DNA of 64,000 bases from Acidobacteriota bacterium (GTDB lineage Bacteria; Acidobacteriota; Thermoanaerobaculia; Thermoanaerobaculales; Sulfomarinibacteraceae), in the NCBI GenBank assembly GCA_022340775.1, contig JAJDNH010000088.1, forward strand, positions 13,464 through 77,463, given 5' to 3'. Positions within the stretch are counted from its first letter, which is position 1. Each line of letters begins with the position of its first letter. Both the position numbers and the translations under genes were made by a program. The notes below the pieces were generated by a model. It was not told where the DNA came from and ran no database searches. It worked only from the letters and a program-made list of their open reading frames with translations. Below are positions 24,377 through 52,046 of this stretch, one piece after another.

Positions 24377-24460
24377 GGGACCTTCAGAAGCCCCGCCTTC
24401 GCACGCGGCACGCCCGATGGAGCGCATCATTCTCTGCAGCGCGCTGCACCCGTGTCTCTT

Positions 24461-32355: not shown

Positions 32356-33846
32356 TCAGGCGGCCACAGCCTCCGAGGAATCTGCCTCGGCCGGCTTGCC
32401 GCGCAGGATGACGCCGGCGGCCATGACGGCGGTGCTCAGGATGAGGGCGCAGGCGGCCGGGACGGCCGGGTTGTTGTGGTAATGGGTAATGCCGCCGTAG
32501 TACATGCCGAAGTGGACCGCGAGCGCGGTCAGGGCCGCCGCCAGCGCCAGGCCGCCGGTGGCGCGGCGCGAGAAGATGCCGAACAGGACCGGGGCGAAGA
32601 CGGCGGCGAACAGTCCGTAGACGCCGTTCTGGGCAAAGATGGCGACGCTCAGGTTGGGATCGACGACCTCGTCCCAGGCGAGCAGGAAGGTGACCGGGGC
32701 GAGGGCGACCAGCGCCCAGCGGCCGACCCGCAGCAGGCGCTGCTTGACCCGTTCTTCATCCGCGCCCGCGAGGCGCGCGAGGCTGCCGTAGAGGTCGTTG
32801 GCGGCGATCGAGGACAGCGCCAGCACCACGCCTTCGAGGGTCGAGAACCCGGCCGCCAGCACGCCGAGCATGATCAGCGAGCGGAGCCCGGGAGCAAAGT
32901 GGGTGGCGATGTAGGTCGCAACCACGCGGTCGGGCGTTAGCCCGCCGCCGAGCTCGAGCCGGGCGTACAGGCCGACAACCAGCACGGCGGTGAAGATGGT
33001 GCCGGTGATGACGGCCGTCGCCAGGTAGGTGTTGACGTCGCGCTCGGAGCGCAGGTAGAGCGTCTTCGAGATGATGTGCGGCTGCATGATGATGGCGACG
33101 CCGATGATGAAGTTGGCGACGACCACCTCGAACAGGTCGCGGAACAGCAGGCTGTTGGGGTTGGTCACGCTCCCGTAGTGGGGAGCGACGGCGGCCAGGC
33201 GGTCGAAGAAGCCGCCGAGCCCGCCCGAGAAGAACCCCGCCCCGGCCGCGACTAGCAGCACGGCGACCACGATCATGGTGACCGCCTGGACGCTGTTCGA
33301 CCACACGTGGACGCTGGCGCCGCCGACGAAGATGACGGCAAAGGTGAACACGACGACGATGGTCAGCGCCGCCAAGAGCGGCAGGTGGAGAACGCTCATC
33401 AGCACGTGGACCAGGGCGGCCACGATCAGCACCAGGAAGGTGATCTGCAGCAGGCTGACGAGGGCGAAGAAGGCGGTTAGCCGCCGGTCGCCGTAGCGGT
33501 CGCCGATCCACTGCGGGACGGTGAGCGCGATGACCCGGTCGCCGACCTGACGGAAGCGGCGCGAGGTCACCACCAGGCCGGTGAAGATCCCGAGCGGGGC
33601 GGCGATCCCGTAGCCGACGACGCCGGCCCAGCCGTAGGCGTAGATCAGGCCGGGGTTGATGACGAAGGTGGCGACGCTGGTCATGTTGGCGGCGAGGGAG
33701 AGACCGACCAGCACCGGCGACACCTGGCGGTTGCCGACCGCGAACGAGGCCATGCTCTGCGCGCGCCGGCGGTTCCACAACGCGAGCCCGCCGATCACCG
33801 CCAGGTAGGCCAGGAACATCATCCACGGCAGGAACGTCTCGTTCAT
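32356..33846 (-). CDS. sodium:solute symporter family transporter
   Basis: Start trimmed to ATG 33846 (MNETFLPWMMFLAYLAVIGGLALW). About 13 TM segments. The 770-aa track ORF is an upstream read-through. Confidence 0.8.
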   Translation of the reverse strand: MNETFLPWMMFLAYLAVIGGLALWNRRRAQSMASFAVGNRQVSPVLVGLSLAANMTSVATFVINPGLIYAYGWAGVVGYGIAAPLGIFTGLVVTSRRFRQVGDRVIALTVPQWIGDRYGDRRLTAFFALVSLLQITFLVLIVAALVHVLMSVLHLPLLAALTIVVVFTFAVIFVGGASVHVWSNSVQAVTMIVVAVLLVAAGAGFFSGGLGGFFDRLAAVAPHYGSVTNPNSLLFRDLFEVVVANFIIGVAIIMQPHIISKTLYLRSERDVNTYLATAVITGTIFTAVLVVGLYARLELGGGLTPDRVVATYIATHFAPGLRSLIMLGVLAAGFSTLEGVVLALSSIAANDLYGSLARLAGADEERVKQRLLRVGRWALVALAPVTFLLAWDEVVDPNLSVAIFAQNGVYGLFAAVFAPVLFGIFSRRATGGLALAAALTALAVHFGMYYGGITHYHNNPAVPAACALILSTAVMAAGVILRGKPAEADSSEAVAA

Positions 33847-33939
33847 TGTCGGTACCTCTGAGGAAGAGTGTAGCCCGGCACGGCCAGTGTGGCGGAGTGC
33901 CGTGCACGAGCAGCGCCCGCCGTGGAGTACGATGTTGGC

Positions 33940-34650
33940 ATGGGTAACGAGCCCAGCTTGTTGCCGCCAACCTACGACCTCCGCACCCTGGGCGAGGGGA
34001 CGGCGATCTACGAGCGTCTCGAGCAGATGGCCGACGAGATGCTGGCCGCTGCGGGCGAGCAGGTGGGGTGCGCGTTCGAACGGGTGCCGGCCTTCGTTGA
34101 GCGCGCCTGCCGGGAGAGCGGCCGTGACAAGGAGTACTACCGGCGCACCACCCGCGAGCGCTACCTGGCCGACCTGCTTGCGTGCGTGGTCATGAACAGG
34201 CAGTTCTGGCCGGAGTTCGTGGCCCGCCGCGACACGGTGCTCATCCTGCCCGACTGCCTGCGGCGCCGCGGCGAGGAGTGCGAGCGCAAGGGCTCGCGCT
34301 ACGGGGCGCGCTGCGCGGTATGCGACGAGAGCTGTGCGATCGGGCGGATGACGGTGGAGGCGGCGAAGCGCGACGCCGGGGCGTACTTCTCGGACCTCGA
34401 GCACGAGAAGCAGTTTCGCCTCCTCAAGCGCGGTCGCTACCGGGACCTGTCGGTGATCGGGGTCGCGTGCATCTGGATGCTCGCCAACGGAATGCGCGCG
34501 GCGGAAGCGGCCCGCGTGCCGAGCCAGGGAGTGCTGCTCAACTACTGCGGCTGCGAGCACTGGCTGGACGAGCCGTGCGTGACCGACGCGGTGGTCGAGC
34601 GCGTGGTCGAGATCCTCGACGCCAAGGCACGCGCCCGGGCCACGCTGTAG
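33940..34650 (+). CDS. DUF116 domain cysteine-rich protein
   Basis: ILPDCLRRRGEECERKGSRYGARCAVCDESCAIG and VACIWMLANG, as I recall for DUF116. The start could also be 33889. Confidence 0.5.
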   Translation: MGNEPSLLPPTYDLRTLGEGTAIYERLEQMADEMLAAAGEQVGCAFERVPAFVERACRESGRDKEYYRRTTRERYLADLLACVVMNRQFWPEFVARRDTVLILPDCLRRRGEECERKGSRYGARCAVCDESCAIGRMTVEAAKRDAGAYFSDLEHEKQFRLLKRGRYRDLSVIGVACIWMLANGMRAAEAARVPSQGVLLNYCGCEHWLDEPCVTDAVVERVVEILDAKARARATL

Positions 34651-34767
34651 CCCGGAATCGCCTATCATCTAGGGAACAAACATCTGGTCGCACGAGGTGA
34701 CGACGTCCGGAGAGCGGAGAGGTCTGTCGTCACCCTCGCGGCCCAAGCCTGCCGGAGGTACCGACCC

Positions 34768-35877
34768 GTGCCGCTGAGCGGACAGCTCGAGACGATGGGA
34801 CCCGCGGACCTGCTCCAGTGGGCGGCCGGGGGACACAAGACAGGTCTCCTGGTCATAGAGGGACCCCGGTTCACGAAGCGGATCCTGTTCCAGGAGGGCC
34901 TGGTTTCGGCGGTGATGTCCGACGACCCAGCCGAGCAGCTCGGGACCTACCTGGTTGGCTGGGGCTTCCTCGGCGAAGACACCCTCCAACAGCTGCTCGA
35001 GGAGCAGCGCAAGCTCGGGACCATGCTGGGAGAGGAGATGGTGCGTCGCGGCGTGCTCAGCCGCGTGGAGCTCACTCGCGTCCTCAGCCTCAAGACCGAG
35101 GAGTCCATGTTCGACCTCCTGACATGGGAAGAGGGAGAGTTTTCGTTCCTGGAGGAGTCGCGGCCGCGGCGCGAGTTCGAGGGTCTCGGCCTCCCGGTCG
35201 ACCACTTCCTGCTCGAGGGCATGCTGCAGGAAGACGAGCGCAGGGCCATCGCGGAGGTCATCCCGGACTCGAGCTACGTGCCTTCGCTTGCCCCGGAACC
35301 CGAGATCGAGAGCGACAATCCCGAGACGTTGCGGATCCTCGAGGCCGTGGACGGCGTCCGCAGTGTCCGCCGGATCGCGATGTCCTGTCGGCTCCCCGAG
35401 TTCGACGTTCTGCTGGTCCTGGCCGGCGCAGTCCGGGATGGCCTTGTCACCGTTGCACGCGGCGTCGCGGCGCAGCCGGCGGTACGGAGCGGCCCCCCCT
35501 GGCAAGCGGCGTTGCAGGACGCGGCGAACAGCCTTGCCACCGGCGAGCTCCACAACGCCCACCGACACCTGCAGCGAGTGACCACGGACTCCGACGCCGA
35601 GCCGTCGGCGCTCGTCGAGGCCCGGGTCCTGGAGGAGGAGATCCGGAAAGAGGTGGAGCAGGTATTCCTGTACGGCGCCCCGGTAGCGGTGCTGGCCGTC
35701 ACCCTCGAGGAGCTGGACGACATGAACACCTCGCCCGAGGAGGCGTTCGCACTGTCCCGCGTCAACAGCCGCTACACCGTCCACCAGGTGCTCGCACAGC
35801 TGCCGGGTAGCCGCCTGGACGGCCTGCTGGTGCTGCACGACCTGCTGCTGCGCGGGCTCATCCGGCTGGAACGCTAA
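34768..35877 (+). CDS. DUF4388 (PatA-N-like) domain protein
   Basis: GTG start. LSGQLETMGPADLLQWAAGGHKTGLLVIEG matches the DUF4388 N-terminal signature. Confidence 0.65.
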   Translation: MPLSGQLETMGPADLLQWAAGGHKTGLLVIEGPRFTKRILFQEGLVSAVMSDDPAEQLGTYLVGWGFLGEDTLQQLLEEQRKLGTMLGEEMVRRGVLSRVELTRVLSLKTEESMFDLLTWEEGEFSFLEESRPRREFEGLGLPVDHFLLEGMLQEDERRAIAEVIPDSSYVPSLAPEPEIESDNPETLRILEAVDGVRSVRRIAMSCRLPEFDVLLVLAGAVRDGLVTVARGVAAQPAVRSGPPWQAALQDAANSLATGELHNAHRHLQRVTTDSDAEPSALVEARVLEEEIRKEVEQVFLYGAPVAVLAVTLEELDDMNTSPEEAFALSRVNSRYTVHQVLAQLPGSRLDGLLVLHDLLLRGLIRLER

Positions 35878-36112
35878 GGAGGCGCGGGCGGAGCGCCCGT
35901 TCTACTCCACTCCGCGATACGGGGTCATCTGCGCGTTTTTCGCTTGTCGTCCGCCTCCGAAGTACCTGCAGGTACGACTGCGGCGTGCTCCGGCACGAGA
36001 AAACGCATATCTGACACCCGTCTCACGAAGCTCGCTACGAACGGACTCCCCGTCCGCGCCTCTCAAGACTCTGAGCGGACAAGGTTCCCTTTTGTTCCAG
36101 GCCAACACAAGA

Positions 36113-36221
36113 GGCAGATCCGAGCGCAGCGGCCCCTCGGGGCGGGAAGACCGGATCGAGGTCCTCCTCGAGACCGGGCTGACCGCCCCCGAGGGGTGCG
36201 GCCGCAGGCCGCGGATCTGCC
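36113..36221. other. 109-nt long imperfect palindrome in a repeat-free 480-nt leader
   Basis: GGCAGATCCG (36113-36122) pairs with CGGATCTGCC (36212-36221). Inner pairs are CCCCTCGGGG/CCCCGAGGGG, with an apical TCGAGG-TCCT-CCTCGA. Confidence 0.4.
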
Positions 36222-36361
36222 GTACAGGCAGGCGTCACGACGGAACCGGAGAGGGCTCAGGCAGGGATCATGATTCCGATGTGCACTGGTAGAGTTGGAC
36301 AGCACCGGCCGGCGTGCGAGGCCACGCCTCCGCCCGGCCAGCAAGTTCGAGGGGGATACCG

Positions 36362-39300
36362 ATGCTCTTACGCCGCCTTGTCACCCTGCTCCTGCTCATG
36401 GCCGCTCCGGCGGCCGCGGGCCGGGTCGATCCCGCCCTGCTCCAGGACCTGCACTGGCGCCTCATCGGGCCGTTCCGCGGCGGCCGCGTCCTGGCGGTCA
36501 CCGGAGTGCCCAGCGAGCCGGACCACTTCTACTTCGGCTCCGTCAACGGCGGCGTCTGGGAGACGGTCGACGCCGGGCGAACCTGGCGGCCGATCTTCGA
36601 CCGCGTACCGGTGGGATCGATCGGTGCATTGGCGGTCGCGCCCTCCAATCCGAAGGTGATCTACGCCGGCACCGGCGAGGCCGACATGCGATCCGACATC
36701 GCCCAGGGCAAGGGCGTCTACGCCTCGAGCGACGGCGGCAAGACCTGGCGCTTCGCGGGCCTCGGCGACAGCCAGCAGATCGGGCGTATCGAGGTCGACC
36801 CGCGCGATCCAAGCGTGGTCTGGGTGGCGGCGCTCGGCCACCCGTACGGGCCGAACGAGCAGCGCGGCATCTTCAAGTCGACCGACGGTGGCAAGAGCTG
36901 GCGCAAGGTGCTCGGGCCGGATGAGGACACCGGCGGGATCGAGCTGGTGCTGGCGCCGGACGACCCCGACACGGTCTACGCCGCCCTGTGGCAGACGCGG
37001 CGCCCGCCGTGGAGCGTCTACCCGCCCTCGAACGGCCCGGGATCCGGCCTCTACAAGTCGACCGACGGCGGCAAGCACTGGCAGAAGATCGAGGGCCACG
37101 GCTTCCCGAAGGCGCCGGGAAGGATCGGTCTCGCCGTCGCCCCGAGTGAGCCGAGCCGCGTGTACGCCCTCGTCGACGCCGATGACGGCGGCGGTCTCTA
37201 CCGCTCCGACGACCGCGGCGCACACTGGACGACGACCAGCACCGACACCCGAGTCTGGTACCGGGGCTGGTACTTCGGACAGATCACGGTCGAGCCGCGC
37301 GACGCCGACGTCGTCTATGTCTGCAACACGGTCCTTCTCCGCTCCGCGGACGGTGGCAAGACCTTCGTGCCGATCGAGGGCGACGCCACCGGCGACGACT
37401 TCCACCAGATGTGGATCAACCCGAAGCACCCCGAACGCAGGATCCTGGGCACCGACCAGGGCACGATCGTGAGCGTCGACGACGGTGCCAGCTGGAGCTC
37501 CTGGTACAACCAGCCGACCGCTCAGCTGTACCACATCGCGGCCGACAACCGTTTCCCGTTCCGGGTCTACGCGGCGCAGCAGGACTCGGGTTCGATCTCG
37601 TTGCCGAGCCGCACCATGACCTGGGACGGCATCAGCCCCGACAAGGTGATGCGGATTCCGGTCGGTGGCGAGAGTCAGAACCTCGCGCCCGATCCACTCG
37701 ACCCCGACATCATCTACGGCGGCACAGTAGACAGGCTCGACCTGCGCACCTGGCAGGCACGGTCGATCGATCCGACGGTTGCCCACCCCGATCGCTGGCG
37801 CCGCACCTGGACGTTGCCGCTCGCGTTCTCGTTCCGCGATCCACGCGTGCTGTACTTCGCGCGTCAAAAGATCTTCAGGACCGACGACGGCGGCAACCAC
37901 TGGGAGATCATCAGCCCCGACCTGACCCGCCACGAGCCGGGCGCCCTCCCCAACCTCGACCCGATCACCGCCAAGGACGCCTTCGGCCTCGGACCGCGCC
38001 GCGGCGTCGTCTACGCGCTGGCGCCGTCGCACCTGGCCGACCACGAGCTGTGGGCGGGCACCGACGACGGCCTCGTCTGGCGCACCCGCGACGGCGGCCA
38101 GCACTGGCAGAACGTGACCCCGCCCGAGCTCACGCCGTGGTCCAAGGTCGGCATCATCGAGACCTCGCACTTCGATCCACAGACCGCCTATGTCGCGGTC
38201 GACCGCCACCGTCTGGACGACCGCAAGCCGTACATCTACCGGACGCATGACGGGGGCCAGAGCTGGCAGCTGACGGTCGACGGCATCGCCTCCGACCACT
38301 TCGTCAACGCGGTGCGCGAGGACCCGGCGCGCGAGGGCCTGCTCTACGCGGCAACCGAGGAGGGCGTCTACTTCTCTCTCGACGACGGCGATCACTGGCA
38401 GTCGCTGCAGCTCAACCTGCCGGTGACCTCGGTGCGCGACCTGGTCGTCCACGGCGACGACCTGGCAATCGCCACCCACGGGCGCGGCATCTGGATCCTC
38501 GACGACGTGGCGCCGCTGCGCCAGCTCACGGCCGAGGTCGAGGCGGCGCCGGTCTGGCTCTTCAAGCCGGCGACCGCCTACCGGCTGCGCTTCGCGGGCT
38601 TCACCGGAACGCCAATGCCGAAGGACGAACCGACGGCGCCCAACCCTCCCGCCGGCGCCTGGATCGACTACCTGCTCAAGACCGCGCCGGCCGGGCCGGT
38701 GACCCTCGAGATCCGCGATGCCGCCGGCGCAGTGGTCGACAGCTGGTCAAGCGCCGACAAGGTGCGAAGCCCCGACCCGCGCCGCATGCGGATGGCGCCG
38801 CAGTGGTTCGAGCCGCCGGCGCACATCGAGGCGACCCCGGGGATGCACCGCTTCGTCTGGAATCTACGCTATTCCTCGAGTCCCGGGGTCGGCGGTTTCC
38901 GGTACCGAGGCGGCGTCTGGGCGCCTCCAGGGGAGTACACGGTGGTGCTGACCGTCGACGGCTCGACCCTCACCCGAACCCTGACCGTGGCGCCCGACCC
39001 GCGCGTCAAGCTCGAGCCCGCAGCGTACCGGGAGGAGTTCGAGCTGGCGCGGCGCGTGGAGACGCTTGCGTCACGGGTGGCCAAGACGGAGCGTGCCGTC
39101 GCCGGCGTCCAGCGCCAGCTCAGGGCGCGCCAACGGGAGGCCCGGGGCGAGGTCGCCGCGGCACTCGACGGCTTGAGTGAGAAGCTGACGGCACTGACCG
39201 GCGTCGAGCCGAGGATCAGCCCTGCCAACATCTGGTTCTCCCCGCCGAAGAGCGTCGACAGCCTGCGCTGGCTCTCCGGCACCTTGCGCGAGCTGCTGCA

Positions 39301-39478
39301 GGTCGTGGACGGCGCAGACGCCGCGCCGTCGGCCGACGCGCGCGCCGCCTACGCCAAGCTGGAGCCGATGGTCAACTCGGCCGTCGGGGTCTGGCGCCGC
39401 ATCTCGGCCACCGACCTGGCGGCCCTCAACGAGAAGCTCGCCGCCGCGGGGATGAAAGCGATCACGACGCGCCGCTGA
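36362..39478 (+). CDS. sortilin/VPS10-like BNR (Asp-box) repeat protein, secreted
   Basis: Start trimmed to ATG 36362, with a signal peptide. There are 10 Asp-boxes, including SSDGGKTW, STDGGKSW, STDGGKHW, TDDGGNHW, TRDGGQHW and THDGGQSW. Confidence 0.85.
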   Translation: MLLRRLVTLLLLMAAPAAAGRVDPALLQDLHWRLIGPFRGGRVLAVTGVPSEPDHFYFGSVNGGVWETVDAGRTWRPIFDRVPVGSIGALAVAPSNPKVIYAGTGEADMRSDIAQGKGVYASSDGGKTWRFAGLGDSQQIGRIEVDPRDPSVVWVAALGHPYGPNEQRGIFKSTDGGKSWRKVLGPDEDTGGIELVLAPDDPDTVYAALWQTRRPPWSVYPPSNGPGSGLYKSTDGGKHWQKIEGHGFPKAPGRIGLAVAPSEPSRVYALVDADDGGGLYRSDDRGAHWTTTSTDTRVWYRGWYFGQITVEPRDADVVYVCNTVLLRSADGGKTFVPIEGDATGDDFHQMWINPKHPERRILGTDQGTIVSVDDGASWSSWYNQPTAQLYHIAADNRFPFRVYAAQQDSGSISLPSRTMTWDGISPDKVMRIPVGGESQNLAPDPLDPDIIYGGTVDRLDLRTWQARSIDPTVAHPDRWRRTWTLPLAFSFRDPRVLYFARQKIFRTDDGGNHWEIISPDLTRHEPGALPNLDPITAKDAFGLGPRRGVVYALAPSHLADHELWAGTDDGLVWRTRDGGQHWQNVTPPELTPWSKVGIIETSHFDPQTAYVAVDRHRLDDRKPYIYRTHDGGQSWQLTVDGIASDHFVNAVREDPAREGLLYAATEEGVYFSLDDGDHWQSLQLNLPVTSVRDLVVHGDDLAIATHGRGIWILDDVAPLRQLTAEVEAAPVWLFKPATAYRLRFAGFTGTPMPKDEPTAPNPPAGAWIDYLLKTAPAGPVTLEIRDAAGAVVDSWSSADKVRSPDPRRMRMAPQWFEPPAHIEATPGMHRFVWNLRYSSSPGVGGFRYRGGVWAPPGEYTVVLTVDGSTLTRTLTVAPDPRVKLEPAAYREEFELARRVETLASRVAKTERAVAGVQRQLRARQREARGEVAAALDGLSEKLTALTGVEPRISPANIWFSPPKSVDSLRWLSGTLRELLQVVDGADAAPSADARAAYAKLEPMVNSAVGVWRRISATDLAALNEKLAAAGMKAITTRR

Positions 39479-39867
39479 TGCGGACTGCCTTTGGGTGGTG
39501 TCCGCAGCCCCGGCGGCCGGACGTCTGCCCCACAGATGCCCGTCGTCACCTGCCCAAAACGGGAAGCACGGGGAGGACTCTCTGGGGCTCCGGCGGCCGC
39601 GCGGTCATAGGGTGACCGCACGCCTCGTGTCTCCGGCGGGAGCAACGTCTCGAGAGCGGATGAACGACTCCCCGGCTCCCGCCGGAGAACCCTCGGGCCG
39701 CCTCCTTCAATCGTGGAGCCGATACTCCCGTCCCCAAGGGCCGAGATTGCCCCCCTTGACGTTTCTCTCCAGCGCTTACCTCTCGTCATGGCCCTTCAGA
39801 GAAACATCAAGGACCGCACGTCCGTTTGAACGCACCCTTCTCCGAGGCGCACTGCGGGCACCTTCTC

Positions 39868-40342
39868 TGGGTGGGCAGGGGGCGTCTGGCGTCTGGCGTC
39901 TTCCGTTTCCCGTCTCCCGTTTCCCGTCTTCCCTCCCGGGCGGACGGTGGTCTCCGTCACTCCATCACTCCATCATTCCGTCACTCCGTCACTTGCCCGG
40001 GTGGGCGGGGGCTCGTCTCGCGTCTTGCGTCTCGCGTCTCGCTTCCTCGGCGGGTGGGCGGGGGTTCGTCTCGCGTCTTGCGTCTCGCGTCTCGCTTCCC
40101 GGGTAGGTGGGGGCACGTTTCGCGCCTCCCGTCTCCCGTCTTCCCTCCCGGGCGGGCGGTGGTCTCCGTCACTCCGTCACTTGCCCGGGTGGGCGGGGGT
40201 TCGTCTCGCGTCTTGCGTCTCGCGTCTCGCTTCCCGGGTGGGTGGGGGCACGTTTCGCGCCTCCCGCCTCCCGTCTTCCCTCCCGGGCGGGCGGTGGTCT
40301 CCGTCACTCCATCACTCCATCATTCCGTCACTCCGTCACTTG
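39868..40342 (+). repeat. Largest G-box/word cassette array (9 modules, ~137-nt higher-order period)
   Basis: Modules cycle through a GTCTCGC cassette, a CCCGTCTC cassette and a CTCCGTCA cassette, each led by CCGGGYGGGCGGKGG. Segments 40048-40183 and 40184-40342 are near-duplicates. Confidence 0.9.
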
Positions 40343-40437
40343 ATCAGCACGGGACGGTCGTCTCGCCCTCCTCCCCTTGCATCCGCCGGGCCGCGCCGCA
40401 ATAATCAGCTGGAAATCGAGACCCGGAGATCAGCCCC

Positions 40438-42534
40438 ATGCTCGATGCACTGTTTCGCCCAAGATCCGTTGCCGTCATTGGCGCGAGCACCCGGCGGCTG
40501 ACGATCGGCTACCAGATCATCCAGAACCTGCTGGAGTTCGGGTTCACCGGCACCATTTACCCCGTCAACCCGAAGGCGCCGGCCATCCGCTCGATCCACG
40601 CCCACCCCTCGATCCTCGACGTCCCCGACGAGGTCGACCTCGCCCACATCATCGTCAAGAACACGATGGTTCCGGACATCATCGCCGAGTGCGGGACCAA
40701 GGGAGTCAAGGTCGCCATCGTGAACACCTCGGGCTTCTCCGAGGTGGGCGGCGAGGGGATCGCCCTGGAGCAGGAGATCGTGCGCGTGGCGCGCGCCAAC
40801 CGGGTGCGCCTTTTCGGGCCGAACTGTCAGGGAATTATCAACACCGACCCCGAGATCCGGGCCTACTGCAACTTCACCTTCACCCGTCCGACCGAGGGCT
40901 CGATCTCGGTGATCGCCCAGTCGGGCGGGGTTGCCGAGGTGATCAACAACCGCCTGTACGAGCTCGGAGCCGGCCTCCGCATGTACGCCTCGAACGGCAA
41001 CGCCTGCGACGTCTCGATCCCGGAGATCATCGCCTACTGGGGTGACGACCCGGGAACGCGGGTCATCGTCTGCCACGTCGAGAGCCTGTCCGACCCGGCC
41101 GAGTTCCTGCGCGTTGCGAGCATGGTCGCGCGCCGTAAGCCGGTTCTCGGCCTCAAGACCGGACGGACCCGGGCCGGCGCACGAGCCGTCAGCTCCCACA
41201 CCGGCGGGCTGATGAAGGAAGATACGACGACCGAGATCATCTTCCGCGAGGCGGGGGTGGTGTCGTTTTCTGATCAGGCGTCCATGTGCGAGGCCGCCTA
41301 CGCGCTCGCTTCGCAGCCGGCGCCGGCCGGCCGCCGCGTCGGCGTGATGACCAACGCCGGCGGCCCGGGCATCATCAGCACCGACGAGATCATCGGGGCC
41401 GGCTGCGAGATCCCCGAGCTCGGAGAAGCGACCCAGGCTGCACTTCGCGCGGTGTTGTTCGACGAGGCGATCGTCACCAACCCGGTCGATGTGCTGGCAA
41501 CAGGGACGCCCGAGCAGTTCGGGGCCACGGTTCGGATGCTGCTCGAGGACGACGGGCTCGACGCCGTGCTGGTGAACTTCATCACCCCGTTCTTCGTCGA
41601 CTGCAAGGGCGTCGCGAGGGAGATCGTGGCGGCGGCACCGGGCGCCGCCAAGCCGGTGGTGGTCGTCGTGATGACCCGCAAGGAGTCATGGACCCGCACC
41701 CTGCGCATCCTGCGCGAGGGCGGCGTGCCGGTCTTCGATCTACCTGAGCAGGGCGCGCGGGCGCTCGGCGCCATGGTCCGCGATCGAACCCTGCGCGACC
41801 GCCCCCACGACCGGCCGGCTGAGCCTTCGATCTCCGGAGGCACGGCAGCAGCCGCCATCATCGACCGCACCCTCGCGCGCGGCCGCACTTACCTGCCGCA
41901 GGTACGGGCGTACGAGCTGCTCGAGGCGTACGGCCTGCGGACGCCGAAGGCGGCGGAAGCCGGGGACCTCGAGGAGTGCCTGGAGGCGGCAACCGCGATC
42001 GGCTACCCGGTGGTGCTGAAGGTCGAGCGCGACGACGTGGTCCACAAGTCGGACTCCGGCGGGATCGTGCTCGGGCTTGGCGACGAGGATGCCCTGAGCC
42101 GCGCCTGGACCGAAATGAGGACGCGCTTCCAACAGCCCGACACCCGCTTCCTCGTCGCCGCGTCCATCGACCACGACGGTCCCGAGGTGATGATGGGCGC
42201 CAAGCGCGAGGCCGGCCTCGGCCACGTCGTCGCCTTCGGCCTCGGCGGAGTGTTCGTCGAGGTGCTGGGCGACGTGGCATTCGGCATCGCCCCGCTGTCA
42301 GAAAGCCAAGCCCGCGATCTCATCACCGGAGTCAAGGGCTTCCCGCTGCTGTCCGGCGCGCGCGGCCGGGCCGCAGTCGACATCAGCCGCCTCGCCGACG
42401 CCCTGTGCCGCCTCGGCCGGCTGGTCACCGACAACCCGCGCATCACTGAGCTCGATCTCAACCCCGTCTTCGCCTTCCCGGCGGGCCGCGACCCGATCGT
42501 CGTCGACGCCCGCATCCGGGTCTCCGGCGACTAA
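40438..42534 (+). CDS. ADP-forming acyl-CoA synthetase (acetate-CoA ligase family; CoA-binding + ligase-CoA + ATP-grasp domains)
   Basis: SVAVIGAS...GYQII, GPNCQGIIN and VSSHTGGL. The C-terminal ATP-grasp_5 segment reads GYPVVLKV...HKSDSGGIVLGL. Confidence 0.85.
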   Translation: MLDALFRPRSVAVIGASTRRLTIGYQIIQNLLEFGFTGTIYPVNPKAPAIRSIHAHPSILDVPDEVDLAHIIVKNTMVPDIIAECGTKGVKVAIVNTSGFSEVGGEGIALEQEIVRVARANRVRLFGPNCQGIINTDPEIRAYCNFTFTRPTEGSISVIAQSGGVAEVINNRLYELGAGLRMYASNGNACDVSIPEIIAYWGDDPGTRVIVCHVESLSDPAEFLRVASMVARRKPVLGLKTGRTRAGARAVSSHTGGLMKEDTTTEIIFREAGVVSFSDQASMCEAAYALASQPAPAGRRVGVMTNAGGPGIISTDEIIGAGCEIPELGEATQAALRAVLFDEAIVTNPVDVLATGTPEQFGATVRMLLEDDGLDAVLVNFITPFFVDCKGVAREIVAAAPGAAKPVVVVVMTRKESWTRTLRILREGGVPVFDLPEQGARALGAMVRDRTLRDRPHDRPAEPSISGGTAAAAIIDRTLARGRTYLPQVRAYELLEAYGLRTPKAAEAGDLEECLEAATAIGYPVVLKVERDDVVHKSDSGGIVLGLGDEDALSRAWTEMRTRFQQPDTRFLVAASIDHDGPEVMMGAKREAGLGHVVAFGLGGVFVEVLGDVAFGIAPLSESQARDLITGVKGFPLLSGARGRAAVDISRLADALCRLGRLVTDNPRITELDLNPVFAFPAGRDPIVVDARIRVSGD

Positions 42535-42545
42535 GGAGAACCGCC

Positions 42546-44093
42546 GTGGCCGACTGGCTCAACCTCGGACAGACCTTCGCGGTCAACGCCTCCAAGCTTC
42601 CCGACAACGTCGCCTTCATGGACGCGACACGACGGTTCACGTTCCCCGAGGCCAACCGGAGGGTCAATCGGCTCGCCAACGCGCTGCTCGGGCTTGGCAT
42701 CGGCAAGGGTGACACCTTCTCCTGCCTGCTCGAAAACTGCATCGAGATCTGCGAGCTCTACGTGGCGGCGGCCAAGATCGGCGCCGTCATCAGCCCGATC
42801 AACTTCCGCCTGACGCCCGGCGAGGTCGCGTTCATTGCCGACAACGCCGACGCCAAGGCGTTGTTCGTGCACGACCAGTTTCGCGAGGTGGCCGACCGAG
42901 TCCGCGCCGACCTGCCCGCGGTCTCCTCCTGGGTCACGATCGGCGAACCCGCAGCCGGCTACACGCCGTACGAACAGCTGCTGGCCTCCGGCAGTGAGGA
43001 GGAGCCCGACGTCGACGTCGCGCCCGCCGATCCCTGGATCCTGCTTTACACCTCGGGCACCACAGGCCGCCCGAAGGGCGTGATCCGGTCCCACGAGAGC
43101 TACGCCGCCTTCTTCCTCATCAACGGCTGCGACTTCCAGTTCTCGTCGCACGACGTGGTGCTGACCGTCATGCCCCTGTGCCACGTCAACACCACGTTCT
43201 TCAGCTTCACGGCGACCTACCTGGGAGGAGCGAACTACATTCACCGGGTCACCGGCTTTGACGCGCGTGAGGTCCTGGGGCTCGTCGAGCGCCACAAGAT
43301 CACGTTCATCTCGCTGATCCCGACCCACTACAACCTGATCCTCTCGCTGCCGCCCGACGCTCTGGCTGCCTATGACCTGAGCTCGATCGAGAAGCTGCTG
43401 TGCTCCAGCGCGCCGGCACGGGTGGAGGATAAGCTGAAGATCATCGACCTGATCAAGGGCGTCCGGCTCTACGAGGGGTACGGCTCCACCGAGGCCGGCA
43501 TCGTGACCACGCTGTTTCCACAGGAGCAGCTGTCGCACCCCGGATCGATCGGCAAGGAGTCGTCGGCGACCCACCTCGTGAAGATCCTCGACGACGATGG
43601 CAACGAGGTCCCCGACGGCACCATCGGCGAGCTGTTCTCGGCCTCGCCGATGATGTTCGACCGCTACCACAAGCTGCCCGAGAAGACTGCCGAGAGCTTC
43701 CGCGGCCGCTACTTCTCGGCCGGCGACATGGCGCGGCGCGACCCCGACGGCTACTTCTACCTCATCGACCGCAAGCACAACATGATCATCACCGGCGGCG
43801 AGCACGTCTACCCGAGCCAGGTGGAATCGGTGATCGCGACCCACCCCGCAGTCTTCGACGTCGCGGTGATCGGGGTGCCGGACCCGAAGTGGTCGGAGAG
43901 GGTGACCGCGATCGTGATCCTACGCGAGGGCGCTGGAGCGTCCGAAGATGAGATCATCGACTACTGCAGGGAGCGGCTGGCCCGCTTCAAGTGCCCGAAG
44001 CAGGTCCGCTTCATTGCCGCCGAGGCGATGCCACGCACCCCGACCGGCAAGATTCTCCACCGCGTCCTTCGCGAGCGCTGGCCGGACGTCTAG
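42546..44093 (+). CDS. AMP-forming acyl-CoA ligase (class I adenylate-forming enzyme)
   Basis: LYTSGTTGRPKGV, EGYGSTE, GDMARRDPDGYFYLIDRKHNMIITGGEHVYP and PRTPTGKI. Confidence 0.9.
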   Translation: MADWLNLGQTFAVNASKLPDNVAFMDATRRFTFPEANRRVNRLANALLGLGIGKGDTFSCLLENCIEICELYVAAAKIGAVISPINFRLTPGEVAFIADNADAKALFVHDQFREVADRVRADLPAVSSWVTIGEPAAGYTPYEQLLASGSEEEPDVDVAPADPWILLYTSGTTGRPKGVIRSHESYAAFFLINGCDFQFSSHDVVLTVMPLCHVNTTFFSFTATYLGGANYIHRVTGFDAREVLGLVERHKITFISLIPTHYNLILSLPPDALAAYDLSSIEKLLCSSAPARVEDKLKIIDLIKGVRLYEGYGSTEAGIVTTLFPQEQLSHPGSIGKESSATHLVKILDDDGNEVPDGTIGELFSASPMMFDRYHKLPEKTAESFRGRYFSAGDMARRDPDGYFYLIDRKHNMIITGGEHVYPSQVESVIATHPAVFDVAVIGVPDPKWSERVTAIVILREGAGASEDEIIDYCRERLARFKCPKQVRFIAAEAMPRTPTGKILHRVLRERWPDV

Positions 44094-44185
44094 CCCGGGT
44101 CATCCGCTCGCGACCCACTGCTACCAACGGTGGCGCTTGGAGAGACTCTGGAAAGGTGGCACAATTGAAGGTAGGAGGGCGGACG

Positions 44186-47100
44186 GTGATCGCATCTTCA
44201 ACACGCGTGCTGCTCAGCACCGGCGGCACGTCGATCTCATCGGGTGAGGGAAGTCTCACGGACGCCTTTCGGCGCGAGCTATCGGCCGAGGAGCTGAACA
44301 AGCGAGTCGAGGTCATCGTCTCCGGAAACACAAGCATCGGCGGAGTCCGGCCGATTGCGCTCATCTACCCGGACGGTGTCTTCTATCAGCGGATCAGGCC
44401 GGCCGACGTGCCCGAGATCGTCCATGAGCACCTGTTTCACGGACGAATCGTCAAGAGGCTGTTTCTCAGGAAGGTCGACGAGGACGAGATGGAATCCGTC
44501 CTCGGCGAGTTCGACCACTACGGCCTGCAGAGGAAGGTGGCCCTGCGGAACTACGGCTCGATCGATCCTGAGAAGATCGACGAATATCTGGCCGTCGGGG
44601 GGTATGAGGCGCTTCGCAAGGTCCTGACCACGATGAGTCCCGACGGGGTGATCCAGGTCATCAAGGACTCGGGCCTCCGCGGGCGGGGTGGCGCCGGCTT
44701 CCCGACGGGCCTCAAATGGGAGCTCGCCTCCCAGGAGGAGTCCGATCGCAAGTACGTCGTCTGCAACGCCGACGAAGGCGATCCCGGCGCCTTCATGGAC
44801 CGGTCGATTCTGGAAGGGGATCCGCACAGCGTCATCGAGGCCATGGCCATCTGCGGCTACTCCATCGGCGCCAACCAAGGGTACGTCTACGTCAGGGCGG
44901 AGTACCCGATCGCGATCCAGAGGTTGGGGACCGCGCTCGACCAGGCACGGGATCGCGGCCTGCTCGGGAAGAACCTGTTCGACTCCGGGTTCGACTTCGA
45001 TGTGGAGATCCGAATCGGTGCGGGCGCTTTCGTCTGCGGCGAGGAGACGGCCCTCATGCGCTCCATCGAGGGGCTGCGCGGGATACCCAAGCCTCGCCCA
45101 CCGTTCCCGGTGCAGAGCGGGCTGTTTGGAAAGCCCACGGTCCTTAACAACGTGGAGACCTTCGCCAACGTCTCGTACATTCTCGCGCACGGGGCGCAGA
45201 CGTTCGCCAGCGTCGGTGAGGGCAGAAGCAAGGGGACCAAGGTCTTCGCCCTGGCAGGGCACGTCAACAATACGGGCCTGATCGAGGTGCCGATGGGAAC
45301 CACGCTCGGCTCGATCATCTACGAGATCGGCGGTGGCATCTCGGGAGGGAACAGGTTCAAGGCGGCTCAGATCGGCGGCCCGTCCGGCGGGTGCATTCCC
45401 AAGGCCTACCTGAATACCCCGGTGACCTATGAATCCCTCCCGGAGTTGGGTGCGATCATGGGCTCGGGCGGGCTGATCATCATGAGCGAGGACCAGTGCA
45501 TGGTCGATCTGGCCCGCTACTTCCTCGATTTCATGAGAGAAGAGTCCTGCGGCAAGTGCCCGCCGTGCCGGATCGGGGTCAAAGTCCTGCTCAATCTTGT
45601 CACCGGCATCTGTGAGGGACGGGGAACCCTGGAAGACCTGGACCGTCTGGAGGATCTCTCCTCGCACATCAACAAGACGGCTCTCTGCGGGCTGGGCCAG
45701 ACCGCACCGAACCCCGTGCTGTCCACATTGCGGCACTTCCGCGAGGAGTACGTTGAGCACATTCGGGACAAGCGCTGCCGCGCCGGAGCGTGTCCCGGGC
45801 TAGTCCACGCCCCCTGCAGCAACTCCTGCCCCGCCTCGGTCAATGTCCCCGCCTACCTCGCGTACGTCGCGGAGGGACGGTTCGACGAGGCTCTACGGAT
45901 CCACCTGCGCAACAACCCGTTCCCCTCGGTGTGCGGCCGCGTCTGTCCGCAGTGGTGCATCAAGAAGTGCCGGCGGAGAGCCCAGGAGGGTCCGCTGGCG
46001 GTGCGGGCGGTCAAGCGTTTCATGGGCGACACCCGGCTCGACTACAGCGACCTGTTCCCGCCGAAATCCGACCCGAACGGCAAGAAGGTGGCAGTTGTCG
46101 GGGCCGGCCCGGCAGGTCTGACATGCGGCTACTACCTGGTCCTCCTCGGATATGAGGTCACCGTCTTCGAGAAGCAGCCGGAGCCGGGCGGCATGCTGCG
46201 CTACGCTATCCCGGAGTACCGTCTGCCGCGCGAGGTGACGGCGGCCGAGATCCGGAACCTCGAGCAGCTTGGCGTGAAGATCCGGACCAGCACCAAGATC
46301 GGTGAGGACCTCACCCTGGCTGACTTGAAAGCCGAGGGTTACGAAGCGTTCTTCCTCGCGACCGGCGCCGGCAAGGAGATCGTTCCCGGCGGCGTCCCCG
46401 GCTTCGACCTCCCGGGAGTGATCCCCGGGATCGCCTACCTGGAGCGAGTCGCCAGCGGAGAGTCTGTGCAGATAGGGAAAAGGGTGCTGATCATCGGTGG
46501 GGGCGACGTCGCCATCGACTGCTCCCGAGTCGTGAAGCGGGGCGGGGCGGAAGAGGTGACGGTGGTCTACCGCCGCACCCGAGAGGAAATGCCCACCAGC
46601 CCAATCGAAATCGCAGAGGCGGAGGTAGAAGGCGTCCAGGTGCAGTTGTTGGCCTCGCCTGTCGCCGTGGAGCACACCGCCGACGGCCGACTCCTCGTCA
46701 CGATCCAGCGGATGAGACTGGGTTCTTTCGACGACTCGGGCAGGCGCCGGCCGGAGCCGATCGAGGACTCCGAGTACACGACGGAGGTCGATACCGTCAT
46801 CCTGGCCGTCGGGCAGAAGGCCGACGTCGAAGGCGTCATTCTCGGAACGGAGCTGGAGCCGCTTGGAAACCGCATCGGTGCGGACTCGAGGACGGGAGCC
46901 ACCGCTGCTCGGGACATCTTCGCCGGGGGCGACCTCGTCACGGGATCCGCCACCGTCATCGAGGCGATCGCGGCCGGTCAGCGCGCCGCCAAGAGCATCG
47001 ATCAGATGTTCTTCCCGGGCGAGCGCTTCTACTTCTGGGAGGAGCTGCCCCTGCCGGACGTGGCTGTCGATCTGGAGAGGGGAATCAACGAAGAGCCGCC

Positions 47101-47248
47101 CGTCCAGCCGCCGATGCTGTCGCCCGAGGAACGTTGGGTCAGCGTTGAGGTCGAGAAGACGATCTCCCGGGAAGATGCCATGCACGAGGCGTCCAGGTGC
47201 CTCCGCTGTGACTACAAGGGAGAGCCCTCGGACTCCCCGCCTCACTGA
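44186..47248 (+). CDS. multidomain flavoprotein: thioredoxin-like N-domain + NuoF-like (FMN/NADH, 4Fe-4S) + GltD-like FAD/NAD(P)H oxidoreductase
   Basis: GTG 44186 follows AGGAGGG. GRGGAGFPTGLKWE, CGKCPPCR, CPASVNVPAYL and VAVVGAGPAGLTCGYYL...GGMLRYAIPEYRLP. Confidence 0.85.
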   Translation: MIASSTRVLLSTGGTSISSGEGSLTDAFRRELSAEELNKRVEVIVSGNTSIGGVRPIALIYPDGVFYQRIRPADVPEIVHEHLFHGRIVKRLFLRKVDEDEMESVLGEFDHYGLQRKVALRNYGSIDPEKIDEYLAVGGYEALRKVLTTMSPDGVIQVIKDSGLRGRGGAGFPTGLKWELASQEESDRKYVVCNADEGDPGAFMDRSILEGDPHSVIEAMAICGYSIGANQGYVYVRAEYPIAIQRLGTALDQARDRGLLGKNLFDSGFDFDVEIRIGAGAFVCGEETALMRSIEGLRGIPKPRPPFPVQSGLFGKPTVLNNVETFANVSYILAHGAQTFASVGEGRSKGTKVFALAGHVNNTGLIEVPMGTTLGSIIYEIGGGISGGNRFKAAQIGGPSGGCIPKAYLNTPVTYESLPELGAIMGSGGLIIMSEDQCMVDLARYFLDFMREESCGKCPPCRIGVKVLLNLVTGICEGRGTLEDLDRLEDLSSHINKTALCGLGQTAPNPVLSTLRHFREEYVEHIRDKRCRAGACPGLVHAPCSNSCPASVNVPAYLAYVAEGRFDEALRIHLRNNPFPSVCGRVCPQWCIKKCRRRAQEGPLAVRAVKRFMGDTRLDYSDLFPPKSDPNGKKVAVVGAGPAGLTCGYYLVLLGYEVTVFEKQPEPGGMLRYAIPEYRLPREVTAAEIRNLEQLGVKIRTSTKIGEDLTLADLKAEGYEAFFLATGAGKEIVPGGVPGFDLPGVIPGIAYLERVASGESVQIGKRVLIIGGGDVAIDCSRVVKRGGAEEVTVVYRRTREEMPTSPIEIAEAEVEGVQVQLLASPVAVEHTADGRLLVTIQRMRLGSFDDSGRRRPEPIEDSEYTTEVDTVILAVGQKADVEGVILGTELEPLGNRIGADSRTGATAARDIFAGGDLVTGSATVIEAIAAGQRAAKSIDQMFFPGERFYFWEELPLPDVAVDLERGINEEPPVQPPMLSPEERWVSVEVEKTISREDAMHEASRCLRCDYKGEPSDSPPH

Positions 47249-47267
47249 GCCAGTCACTCGGCAAGAT

Positions 47268-47406
47268 CCCCCGCAGCGCGCTGCGCCCACATTCTCCGGC
47301 TGGGCGGGGAACTCCGTTACCCCGTCACTCCGTTACTGCGTCACTCCGTCACCGGGTGGGCGGGGGAACCTCATCACCTAATCACTCAATTACTTAATCA
47401 CTTCCC
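47268..47406 (+). repeat. Palindrome GCAGCGCGCTGC plus two G-box/word cassettes between convergent genes
   Basis: CCCGCAGCGCGCTGCGCCCACATTCTCC, then CTCCGTTACCCCGTCACTCCGTTACTGCGTCACTCCGTCA and CCTCATCACCTAATCACTCAATTACTTAATCAC cassettes. Confidence 0.8.
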
Positions 47407-47408
47407 TC

Positions 47409-49490: not shown

Positions 49491-50701
49491 CGTTGCCGCC
49501 CTCCCTCCGAAACCTCCAGGATCGCCGCGATCCCGACGTCGCCGGCGGCGCAGCCGAACAGCAGCACGTAGCCGCCGCCGAGATCGACCGACTCCTCGAG
49601 CGCCTCGATCAGCAGCCGCGTCAGGGTCGGGCCCTGCGGGTGCCCCCAGACCAGCGAGCAGCCGCTCCTGTTCATCGTCTCCCAGTCACAGTCGAGCAGC
49701 TTGGCGAAGATCGCGTCGTTGACCGCGAACGGGTTGTGGTTCTTGATCACCGCCATGTCGCGGATGCCGAGGCCGGTCTGGTCGAAGAGCTTCTGCACCG
49801 CCAGCGCCGGCGCCTCCGGCATCAGGCTCGGCGAGGTCCGCAGAGCGGTCTTGGCGACCAGGCGGATGTCGATCTCCGGCCGCGGACTCAGCTCAGCGAC
49901 CTTGTCGCGGTCGCACACCAGCAGGCAGGCCATGCCGTCGGAGGCATGCGTCTGGGTGCCAGCGGTGACGCAGGTGTCGAGCTCCCGCATCCCGCGCAGG
50001 GCGCCGGCGGTCAGCCGCCGCACGCCGGTGTCGTCATCGACGACCCCCATCACCCTGCCCTGCATGTTGAGGACCTCGAGCGGCACCAGCACTCGGTCCA
50101 GAAAGCCCGACTCCCGGGCCTCGAAGTACTGCTGGTAGCGACACAGGGTGATGTCGTCAACCTCGGCGCGCTGGATACCGTACTTGCGCGCCGCCAGCCC
50201 CGCGGTGGCGATCATCGCGTTGCCGGTCGCGGGATCGAACCCGAAGTTGTCCCAGACGTCGGCCAGCGCCTCGGTGCGACGGTACCCGCGCCGCTCCGGG
50301 AACACCCCCACCGGCGAGTCGCTGGTACGGTCGAAGGTCAGCACCCCGACCGTCTCGTTGCCGCCGCCGTCGACCTCGGCGGCGGCCAGGAAGACCGCCT
50401 GCAGGCCGGTTGCGCAGGCCTGCTCGAGGTGGAAGCCGGGAACTCGGCGTCCGAGGCAGCTCGCCACCAGCGGCGCGTTCCAGAACTTCCAGTGCCAGGG
50501 AACGGTCGAGCCGATCACCAGGTAGTCGAGGTGCTCGGCGCGCACCCTCCTCAGGCCGAGAATGCGGTTCATGGCCTCGCCCGCGAACTGGCCGATGTTG
50601 ACCTCGGCCAGGGCCGAGGTCTGCCAGGCGGGGAAGTAGCTGCTGCCCCAAGCTCCGTACGGGATCCTGGCCCGGGAGAAGGCCTCGAGGTGTTCGCCCA
50701 T
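49487..50701 (-). CDS. thiolase-family protein
   Basis: LEQACATGLQAVFLAA (active-site Cys region), NHNPFAVNDA and GCAAGDVG. ATGA overlap with the downstream fusion gene. Confidence 0.75.
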   Translation of the reverse strand: MGEHLEAFSRARIPYGAWGSSYFPAWQTSALAEVNIGQFAGEAMNRILGLRRVRAEHLDYLVIGSTVPWHWKFWNAPLVASCLGRRVPGFHLEQACATGLQAVFLAAAEVDGGGNETVGVLTFDRTSDSPVGVFPERRGYRRTEALADVWDNFGFDPATGNAMIATAGLAARKYGIQRAEVDDITLCRYQQYFEARESGFLDRVLVPLEVLNMQGRVMGVVDDDTGVRRLTAGALRGMRELDTCVTAGTQTHASDGMACLLVCDRDKVAELSPRPEIDIRLVAKTALRTSPSLMPEAPALAVQKLFDQTGLGIRDMAVIKNHNPFAVNDAIFAKLLDCDWETMNRSGCSLVWGHPQGPTLTRLLIEALEESVDLGGGYVLLFGCAAGDVGIAAILEVSEGGRQR

Positions 50702-50777
50702 TCCTACCCCCTGTTCAGCTGCGATGAGCTTTCGGTCCTGTTGACGACCGGAAGCATCAGAGGTCGGCTCCGGCCCG

Positions 50778-51725: not shown

Positions 51726-51841
51726 GAGGCTCTTCCTTTCCCGTCCTGGGCCTTCCGCAGGCCCTTCCGTCTTGAGACAACCAACTGTTGCAGACCCTCG
51801 GAGAGTACACCGAACGCCCGACGCGAGGCAACCGGGAAGGA

Positions 51842-51963
51842 GCGCAAGACGCAAGACCGAAGACGCAAGACGAAGCGAAGAACGGCCTTTGCGACTCAAC
51901 CGCCCGGACGTCTGCTCAGGGTGGGCGGGGATCTCCGTCACTCCGTCACCGGGTGGGTGGGAG
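51842..51963. repeat. Mixed-orientation cassettes in a divergent promoter region
   Basis: GCAAGACGCAAGACCGAAGACGCAAGACGAAGC is the reverse of the GTCTTGC words. It is followed by the forward GGGTGGGCGGGGATCTCCGTCACTCCGTCACCGGGTGGGTGGG. Confidence 0.75.
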
Positions 51964-51976
51964 GCAAGGCTTCCCC

Positions 51977-52027
51977 TTGACAGCCCCCCGGGGCCCGCCG
52001 CATACTGATATTCGAACGAACGTTCGA
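51977..52027 (+). promoter_or_regulatory. Promoter plus 16-bp palindromic operator upstream of tetR
   Basis: TTGACA (51977-51982), N18, CATACT (52001-52006). TCGAACG-AA-CGTTCGA lies at 52012-52027, about 20 nt before the tetR ATG. Confidence 0.5.
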
Positions 52028-52046
52028 TCGAGAGGAGCGATCCCCG

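Follow-up and report, generated by a model that had tools for sequence, protein, structure and literature searches.

A 64,000-nucleotide (nt) stretch of DNA from an Acidobacteriota bacterium of the Sulfomarinibacteraceae (GenBank assembly GCA_022340775.1, contig JAJDNH010000088.1, positions 13,464 to 77,463 of the forward strand), here called the window and numbered from its first letter, carries between a BNR protein gene and the gene for an ADP-forming acyl-CoA synthetase an array of nine head-to-tail cassettes (39866-40342) in the order B1 C1 A1 A2 B2 C2 A3 B3 C3. On balance, and with little more than even confidence, we read this array as non-coding, minisatellite-like DNA made of ~50-bp cassettes that belong to a dispersed intergenic mosaic repeat family, one driven by recombination and having no dedicated function. 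Nine modules cycling A-B-C between the two genes had been described in a first-pass annotation of the DNA, and this description was confirmed. The array is real at this locus; it is not the singular object it had been taken for, since it belongs to a dispersed family with about 13 arrays in the window. The alternation of boxes and inserts also stood, the inserts proving to be not plain sequence but tracts of about four 7-8-nt units that fall into five recurring types.

Anatomy and copy number of the array

Each cassette opens with a 15-16-nt G-rich box (CCGGGYGGGYGGGGG; consensus over the nine cassettes, CCCGGGYGGGYGGGGG), after which comes a tract of type A, B or C built from pyrimidine-rich units of 7-8 nt. 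Type A tracts comprise about four 7-nt units (CGTCTYG), type B tracts about four 7-nt units of another sequence (CCGTYTC), and type C tracts two to five 8-nt units (CTCCRTCA). The array, which lies on the + strand, opens with B1 (39866-39934, 69 nt), in which a degenerate box, TCTGGGTGGGCAGGGGG, precedes (GGCGTCT)x3 and a (CCGTYTC)n B tract. C1 (39935-39995, 61 nt) combines the box CCCGGGCGGACGGTGG with five units of CTCCRTCA, and A1 (39996-40048, 53 nt) the box CCCGGGTGGGCGGGGG with four units of CGTCTYG. The first 135-nt A-B-C block is opened by A2 (40049-40097, 49 nt) and continues through B2 (40098-40146, 49 nt) to C2 (40147-40183, 37 nt), which has two 8-nt units only; the second is opened by A3 (40184-40232, 49 nt) and continues through B3 (40233-40281, 49 nt) to C3 (40282-40342, 61 nt), whose five 8-nt units end the array.

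Tandem Repeats Finder reported a period of 135 in 2.0 copies with 97% matches (score 511) at 40051-40316, as well as inner periods of 7 and 8. The blocks A2B2C2 and A3B3C3 differ at four substituted positions, and C3 is longer than C2 by 24 nt, or three 8-nt units, a difference that we attribute to slippage of these units; C1 and C3 differ by a single base. Same-type cassettes are 87-96% similar within the array, compared with 70-88% against A cassettes at eight other loci. Because the 135-nt blocks are ~97% alike and same-type cassettes are closer to each other within the array than between loci, the A-B-C block was duplicated recently, locally and in tandem, and the C tracts vary by whole 8-nt units. 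The recent duplication at the level of the triplet that the first-pass annotation had proposed is thereby supported, and this mechanism of array growth is well supported as a whole.

Read-level data bear on whether the higher-order repeat could be an assembly artefact, its A-B-C copy number inflated or its parts mis-joined. In four runs the short-read contigs are interrupted within the array and show many joints to other loci that look chimeric, as such an artefact would lead one to expect; the family breaks short-read assemblies of Thermoanaerobaculia metagenome-assembled genomes (MAGs). The copies can be told apart, however, by the four substitutions and the 24-nt length difference. In run X1, which contains the same strain and may be the source sample of the window assembly, exact unitigs cover 39926-40042 and 40066-40230 at ~2-9x, versus ~6-9x for unique sequence, and one exact unitig over 40066-40163 includes the whole of B2. 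The C1-to-A1 junction is present in X1 with a five-unit C and the GGGGGCTCG variant, and the C2-to-A3 junction with a two-unit C and the GGGGGTTCG variant (exact unitig 40146-40194); X1 unitigs also span A2, B2 and C2 in succession, and in both X1 and X3 unitigs connect C3 with the right flank. Since the reads contain two distinct C-to-A joints, both in unitigs of single-copy depth (~3-9x), a single collapsed block is ruled out as their source. Other parts of the window were reproduced as well: in X1 the flanking genes match exactly, X1 contigs agree with 46800-52300 without any difference, two arrays included, and a further two arrays lie in 60258-63712, which the JGI contig L146 matches at 99.97%. 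We consider an artefact highly improbable. The A1-to-A2 junction and B3 lie outside the exact X1 unitigs, which counts in its favour and leaves the nine-cassette total supported, not proven.

The array had also been said to mimic the geometry of clustered regularly interspaced short palindromic repeats (CRISPR). As geometry this is correct, in that inserts of comparable length (21-53 nt) separate the short conserved boxes, and a permissive CRISPR finder could flag the array. As an identity it fails. CRISPR direct repeats are expected to be ~23-55 nt long and often partly palindromic, whereas the box is 15-16 nt, G-rich and without dyad symmetry; the would-be spacers are internally repetitive, fall here into three recurring classes and recur as the same types at ~12 other loci; and there are about 13 such arrays in 64 kb. 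No Rfam CRISPR-DR family reached threshold in the window, and analysis of the genes at 32356-49490 with Pfam and PADLOC returned metabolic and transport families and two weak Rossmann-type matches, with no Cas protein or component of another defence system. An identity as a CRISPR array is refuted by the short non-palindromic box, the repetitive recurring inserts, the lack of a CRISPR-DR match and the lack of cas genes within ~8 kb, and we give even a degenerate CRISPR remnant virtually no credence. A coding role was also rejected, because the unit lengths (7 and 8 nt) and most cassette lengths break the reading frame, 69 nt being the only multiple of three; open reading frames (ORFs) spanning the array had no family matches. 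In annotation pipelines the family can trigger both CRISPR finders and spurious ORF calls, such as a 192-amino-acid (aa) ORF at 39826-40404 that spans the array.

The dispersed family and its turnover between species

The box pattern (up to three mismatches) gave 40 matches in the window against 5.5 expected, the maximum in shuffled sequence being 13 and none of 100 shuffles reaching 40; a two-box pattern gave six matches and an A-cassette pattern 21, in both cases against 0.0 expected. These 40 boxes, 37 of which are on the + strand, fall into about 13 intergenic arrays that occupy 3.5% of the window (~2.2 kb) at a density of roughly one array in 5 kb. Besides the array at 39866-40342, cassette arrays lie, at approximate positions, at 449-590, 2736-3040, 7195-7312 (-) and 7545-7600, 9281-9396, 14711-14890, 15800-15850, 21506-21620, 24470-24600, 47295-47400, 51835-51965, 62095-62175 (-) and 63300-63500. 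The family is strictly intergenic. It fills most of the larger intergenic spacers, and at least three further repeat families occur in the window.

Five cassette types (A-E) were distinguished in the window, D being (AATCACYY)x4 and E (CTCACCT)n, both at loci other than 39866-40342. The linker 3' of the box predicts the type (GCACG or GTTCG for A, GAGCG for B, RTCTCC for C and GAACCTC for D), so that what is repeated is the whole cassette and not the box alone. Over the window and twelve related loci, box-to-box spacing peaks at 49-50 bp (22 of 63 pairs), with side peaks one unit shorter, in a range of 24-90 nt; types A and D, built of 7-nt and 8-nt units respectively, both centre on 49-51 bp. 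Tandem units of minisatellite-like size, for which 40-100 bp was the range sought, were thus found at many intergenic loci (cassettes of 37-69 nt in about 13 arrays). Boxes within an array are co-oriented, and no inverted repeats were found inside the array at 39866-40342.

Comparison with the closest relative (~87% nucleotide identity; contigs L118-L127) revealed how these sites change. The spacer between the BNR and CoA-synthetase genes is 183 nt in the relative versus 959 nt in the window, and contains, in this order, a short hairpin, a short A cassette, an E cassette, the promoter-like TTGCAT-17 nt-AATAAT and a leader; window 40368-40440 aligns with L118 9931-10000. A second orthologous site, upstream of a TetR gene (window 51835-51965; L118 19670-19810), has arrays in both species: the window shows an A tract in inverted orientation together with a short C cassette, the relative E and D cassettes. 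Both orthologous sites (2 of 2) therefore hold arrays in both species that differ in type and length: array position is conserved while content turns over, and the number and type of cassettes at one site change freely between close relatives. Within the relative the spacer was identical in 10 of 10 contigs from different samples, without length variation, and array change is accordingly seen between species, not yet between strains. The first-pass annotation had proposed array variation among related genomes as a test of dynamic expansion, and the relative's 183-nt spacer with two cassettes of other types favours dynamism. Runs with window sequence came from rhizosphere, marine-sediment, mangrove and marsh metagenomes, and the arrays could serve as natural variable-number tandem repeat (VNTR) markers for strain typing in such material.

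Scanning contigs with the two-box pattern yielded at least seven true arrays among the 117 loci listed (L018, L047, L060, L082, L090, L093 and L108); the other loci were largely chance matches in Gly/Pro-rich actinobacterial coding DNA, and the non-actinobacterial ones inspected were unrelated tandem repeats. L093 and L047 have the same box and the same A, B, C and E tracts as the window, and belong to the same assembly as the NCBI contig CAZKGM010000014.1, one of the contigs that encode P0002, the orthologue of the window's CoA synthetase. Other Thermoanaerobaculia (L082, L090 and L108) and a Holophagae MAG (L018 and L060) keep the box but have different unit sequences, among them CATAGCCC, TCCGGDAT and CTTCAAC. 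The A-cassette pattern was present in 21 metagenomic contigs, most of them short, and viral contigs and plasmids gave no match. On the reverse strand of L108 (~5820-6620), near-identical copies of a two-cassette array, each with an upstream (CACGGACA)n tract, lie on either side of a 123-aa gene of PF05635 (23S rRNA intervening-sequence protein family), an arrangement that resembles a duplicated insertion site or a small mobile unit. An association of arrays with this four-helix-bundle gene was considered and dropped, since it is present only in L108.

The array at 39866-40342 is itself the 3' tail of a larger repeat. Its head (39480-39865, +), a dispersed non-coding repeat of ~370-390 nt, spans from the BNR stop codon to the first box and is absent from the relative's orthologous spacer. 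A BLAST search aligned it with L093 1655-2027 (72% over 374 nt), where the copy also runs into an array; more copies were found at L133 2373-2624, L137 1607-1850 (also in L135, L139 and L147) and L118 13753-14233, and in L134, L140 and L047. Across metagenome runs the word depth of 39700-39870 is 20-30 times that of the unique flanks. Without exception the head runs up to and includes the opening box of a cassette array. Its structured core (39560-39760, +) comprises two hairpins inside an enclosing helix and contains an inverted repeat (39630-39643 and 39675-39688); RNAalifold on five head copies gave 52 pairs, nine of them with compensatory changes, and Rfam returned no family match for the head. 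We suggest that the head could be the end of a mobile element or an undescribed RNA.

Other repeats take the place of the head elsewhere. A second dispersed repeat of 110-150 nt, containing ...CTGGGGGCGCGCCCTGAAGGACGCGCCTAC..., has seven copies that are 83-92% alike (303-450, 1911-1965, 2572-2642, 7390-7496, 9106-9251, 14470-14617 and 24273-24381 (-)) and is often found just upstream of arrays. A hairpin element, GTCATCCTGA...GAAGGATC, runs directly into the G-rich box in its three window copies (2677-2740, 14674-14715 and 24179-24221 (-)); it occurs in Thermoanaerobaculia and a Holophagae MAG, with copies at L118 ~19672 and L018 ~750. A further array-heading repeat in the window is marked by a ...CTGGAGCGCGCTGCG... 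motif. Arrays usually stand at the 3' end of such larger hairpin-bearing repeats, and are one component of an intergenic-repeat mosaic. In a group of related contigs (L137 versus L147; also L135, L139 and L140), a 1.6-kb segment bounded by 385-nt inverted mosaic-repeat copies appears in opposite orientations in the assemblies of different samples, either through a real inversion by recombination between the repeats or through assembly ambiguity.

Orientation, structure and competing readings

Were the family mosaic DNA remodelled by recombination, identical boxes every ~50 bp together with near-identical cassettes of the same type would be substrates for unequal homologous recombination and replication slippage, and these would remodel the arrays as they do a minisatellite. 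The family would then act and spread at the level of DNA and not as a transcript. A trans-acting factor probably recognises the box, as is suggested by conservation of the box across classes, or else the family may spread by gene conversion. It would be mainly selfish or neutral mosaic DNA in the manner of NIMEs and BIMEs, with G-quadruplex (G4) formation at B cassettes, or spacing or insulation upstream of promoters, as possible side effects; a host function of the family is unproven.

Orientation was compared with that of the neighbouring genes in ~21 independent arrays. With each array turned to +, the left and right genes were (+,+) in 6 cases, (+,-) in 6, (-,+) in 3 and (-,-) in 6, the gene directions for short contigs being approximate, as they come from our own caller based on G+C at third codon positions (GC3). 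Antisense arrays were confirmed by Pfam assignment of the neighbours in L149 at 5859-5938 (-), between a PIN gene (+) and an amino-acid permease gene (+), in L140 at 3412 (-), after a polyprenyl synthetase gene (+), and in the window at 7200-7310 (-), after a CbiA/Fer4 gene (+). Of the 13 arrays in the window, 11 are on the + strand (two-sided binomial p ~0.02), and in L149 every array is on the - strand; whole-window GC skew is ~0, and GC3 skew mirrors the gene strand. Array orientation is thus independent of the flanking genes, yet tends to uniformity within a contig. Because of this combination, arrays are probably placed or retained by a process that works on DNA and that may sense the replication strand.

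Several points weigh against reading the family as recombination-driven DNA without a dedicated function. The strand bias in the window is unexplained, and the gene directions behind the orientation classes are in part approximate. No box-binding or mobilising protein was found in the window, and target-site duplications could not be delimited. The box's conservation in two classes, like the sharp 49-50-bp mode, fits functional selection more easily than neutral drift. The search for mobilising genes had covered transposases and GIY-YIG genes, of which none was seen in the window (GIY-YIG by regular expression), and transposase or recombinase families, of which NCBIfam detected none among the scanned window ORFs lacking Pfam matches. 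There are no tRNA genes in the window, and a tRNA-associated integration hotspot was rejected for that reason.

The same observations can be arranged in favour of a host function, the arrays then being phased DNA with a structural or protein-binding role, in which a conserved protein would bind the box and the tracts would set the ~50-bp spacing; nucleoid organisation, insulation between transcription units, replication-oriented signals and G4/i-motif switches are candidate roles. Such DNA would explain why the box is conserved in Thermoanaerobaculia and Holophagae while the tracts differ, although the window yielded no candidate protein, and it fits the strand bias (37 of 40 window boxes, and all L149 arrays, on one strand). 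The 49-50-bp peak holds whatever the unit size, but spacing as a whole is far from fixed (24-90 nt). The same intergenic sites are occupied in two species despite different content; against this, cassette number and type at a site change freely between close relatives. G4 motifs are likewise double-edged. The canonical motif (four runs of at least three G with loops of 1-7 nt, located by regular expression) occurs 12 times in the 64 kb of 68% G+C DNA, and nine of the 12 are in arrays, six in B tracts opposite the box strand and three in four-tract box variants. In the array described here they are on the - strand at 39916-39937 (B1), 40128-40149 (B2) and 40263-40284 (B3), every one made up of a B tract plus the CCC of the next box. 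The reverse complement of the B tract is (GGGARAC)4, and fourfold GGGAATC repeats form G4 in vitro (PMC4692102). Type B is the only one of the five cassette types with the four-tract motif, however, the box itself having three tracts. We take phased DNA to be unlikely, if a serious candidate.

We are more doubtful that the box is the recognition site of a sequence-specific enzyme or DNA-binding protein, conserved across Acidobacteriota, that writes, shuffles or phases box-plus-four-unit cassettes. Such a protein would be comparable to SsnA acting on NTS/dRS3 in Neisseria, and the arrays, far from being passive junk, would be what an undescribed system of genome-wide DNA transactions leaves behind, one that is possibly oriented with replication.

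A role in transcripts, whether as a Rho-utilisation site or terminator for the BNR gene, as a 5' leader of the CoA-synthetase operon or as a small-RNA locus, we judge improbable. The + strand tracts are C/T-rich and nearly without A (AT skew -0.75 to -0.85), but GC skew over the array is ~0, the C excess of the tracts being offset by the G-rich boxes, so that the array lacks the C>G bias of a rut-like stretch. Many window arrays are sense and just after a stop codon, but between co-directional genes antisense arrays are as frequent as sense ones; the Rho reading was dropped on account of the skew and the many antisense arrays. Folding of the array was no better than that of shuffled sequences (z-scores -1.75 and -1.5), no terminator or promoter consensus sites were found above chance, and there are no T-tract terminators, so that the hairpin or terminator reading was dropped as well. 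A structured non-coding RNA was rejected on the same z-scores and for want of an Rfam family: no match in the window was at gathering level, and at 39300-40500 the only matches had E above 3.

As for the 5' leader, the CU-rich tracts do resemble an anti-Shine-Dalgarno sequence, and 35 nt separate the end of the array from a conserved promoter-like site, TTGCAT-17 nt-AATAAT (40377-40405, +), the putative promoter of the CoA-synthetase operon; the array is, however, upstream of this site and would hence fall outside the operon leader. A consensus scan makes no call there, and the -35 element matches at only three of six positions. The site is kept in the relative (L118 9940-9968), and with its ~30-nt leader it stands in both species directly 3' of otherwise unrelated arrays. 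A box adjoins a promoter-like -35 element at two more sites in the window, at 7585-7600, followed by TTGAAA, and at 51951-51963, followed by TTGACA.

Among known repeat systems, the NIMEs of Neisseria are, by analogy, the closest in architecture and behaviour. Like the arrays described here, they alternate a short conserved box with cassettes from sequence families in intergenic DNA and were proposed to be recombination substrates (PMC1797815). Both show a wave of base composition along the array. NIME arrays occupy syntenic positions with variable number and length, as do ours at 2 of 2 sites, and were not seen outside Neisseria (PMC1797815). They differ in the box, which here is a G-run motif in direct orientation and without palindromic symmetry, whereas dRS3 is a 20-bp palindrome (ATTCCC-N8-GGGAAT) targeted by a phage recombinase and by the ssDNA nuclease SsnA (PMC11893778); the cassettes here are ~34 nt with an inner 7-8-nt period, compared with RS elements of 50-150 bp, and the phylum is another. 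The GTCATCCTGA...GAAGGATC element has an outline like that of the Neisseria NTS (GTCATTCCC...GGGAATC), which SsnA cleaves, yet it is not matched by the published SRM pattern. A link to Ssn and SRM was rejected, both the published SRM pattern and the GIY-YIG regular expression giving 0 matches in the window. Should a cognate protein exist, the family would represent a second NIME/Ssn-like system, in an environmentally dominant and poorly studied phylum.

For the tracts, the closest analogue is provided by heptameric simple-sequence repeats, to which the STRR repeats of cyanobacteria also belong. The GGGAATC repeats of Xanthomonas and GGGGAYT repeats of Nostoc prefer four units and occur on either strand (Rehm et al. 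2015, PMC4692102), and repeats of the GGGAATC type occupy the same sites in related species with different content, in length as well as in sequence (PMC4692102). The arrays share with them dispersed intergenic 7-nt tracts, the preference for four units and indifference to gene strand, and the B-tract complement (GGGARAC)4 is the same kind of G4 motif. The Xanthomonas and Nostoc repeats are bare, however, without a flanking box, and are not chained into multi-cassette arrays, and types A, C, D and E here lack runs of three or more G.

BIMEs of Escherichia coli resemble the family as high-copy extragenic mosaics of a conserved motif and a small set of linker motifs. REPs, though, are imperfect palindromes of alternating orientation that are mobilised by RAYT, while the boxes form direct repeats that lack dyad symmetry, and the window showed no RAYT gene. 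The D tract is within one mismatch of what we take to be the IHF consensus and recalls the RIP/RIB type of BIME, which is bound by IHF. MIRU-VNTR loci of mycobacteria are intergenic tandem repeats of ~46-53 bp at many loci, whose copy number changes by unequal recombination or slippage, and they are similar as scattered intergenic tandem units of like length; MIRUs are co-oriented with their operon and contain small ORFs overlapping its genes, whereas here all four orientation classes occur and lengths break the frame. The family fits no named family and is apparently undescribed. We found no published repeat family with a class-spanning box always followed by about four 7-8-nt lineage-specific units, nor, in a literature on Acidobacteria and Thermoanaerobaculia that was covered in part, any description of the array elements, which is weak evidence of novelty.

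Flanking genes and further observations

The gene to the left of the array (36314-39478, +) encodes a 1054-aa BNR/Asp-box, sortilin-Vps10-like protein (Pfam PF15902, 1.4e-30, and PF02012) and has a GC3 of 0.91. To the right, the ADP-forming acyl-CoA synthetase gene (40438-42534, +) encodes 698 aa with Pfam PF13549, PF13607 and PF13380; the orthologue P0002 is 88% identical, and no exact match to the window's protein was found in a look-up. A 1085-aa NuoF-like/GltD-like fusion gene further downstream (43991-47248) is absent from the relative, which has ~1.5 kb of mosaic repeats at that site (L118 13657-15168), over which a 329-aa ORF without a Pfam match is called. In related contigs, toxin-antitoxin-type genes (PIN and HepT) adjoin several arrays (L148 2076-2480; L149 697-1038 and 5453-5848).

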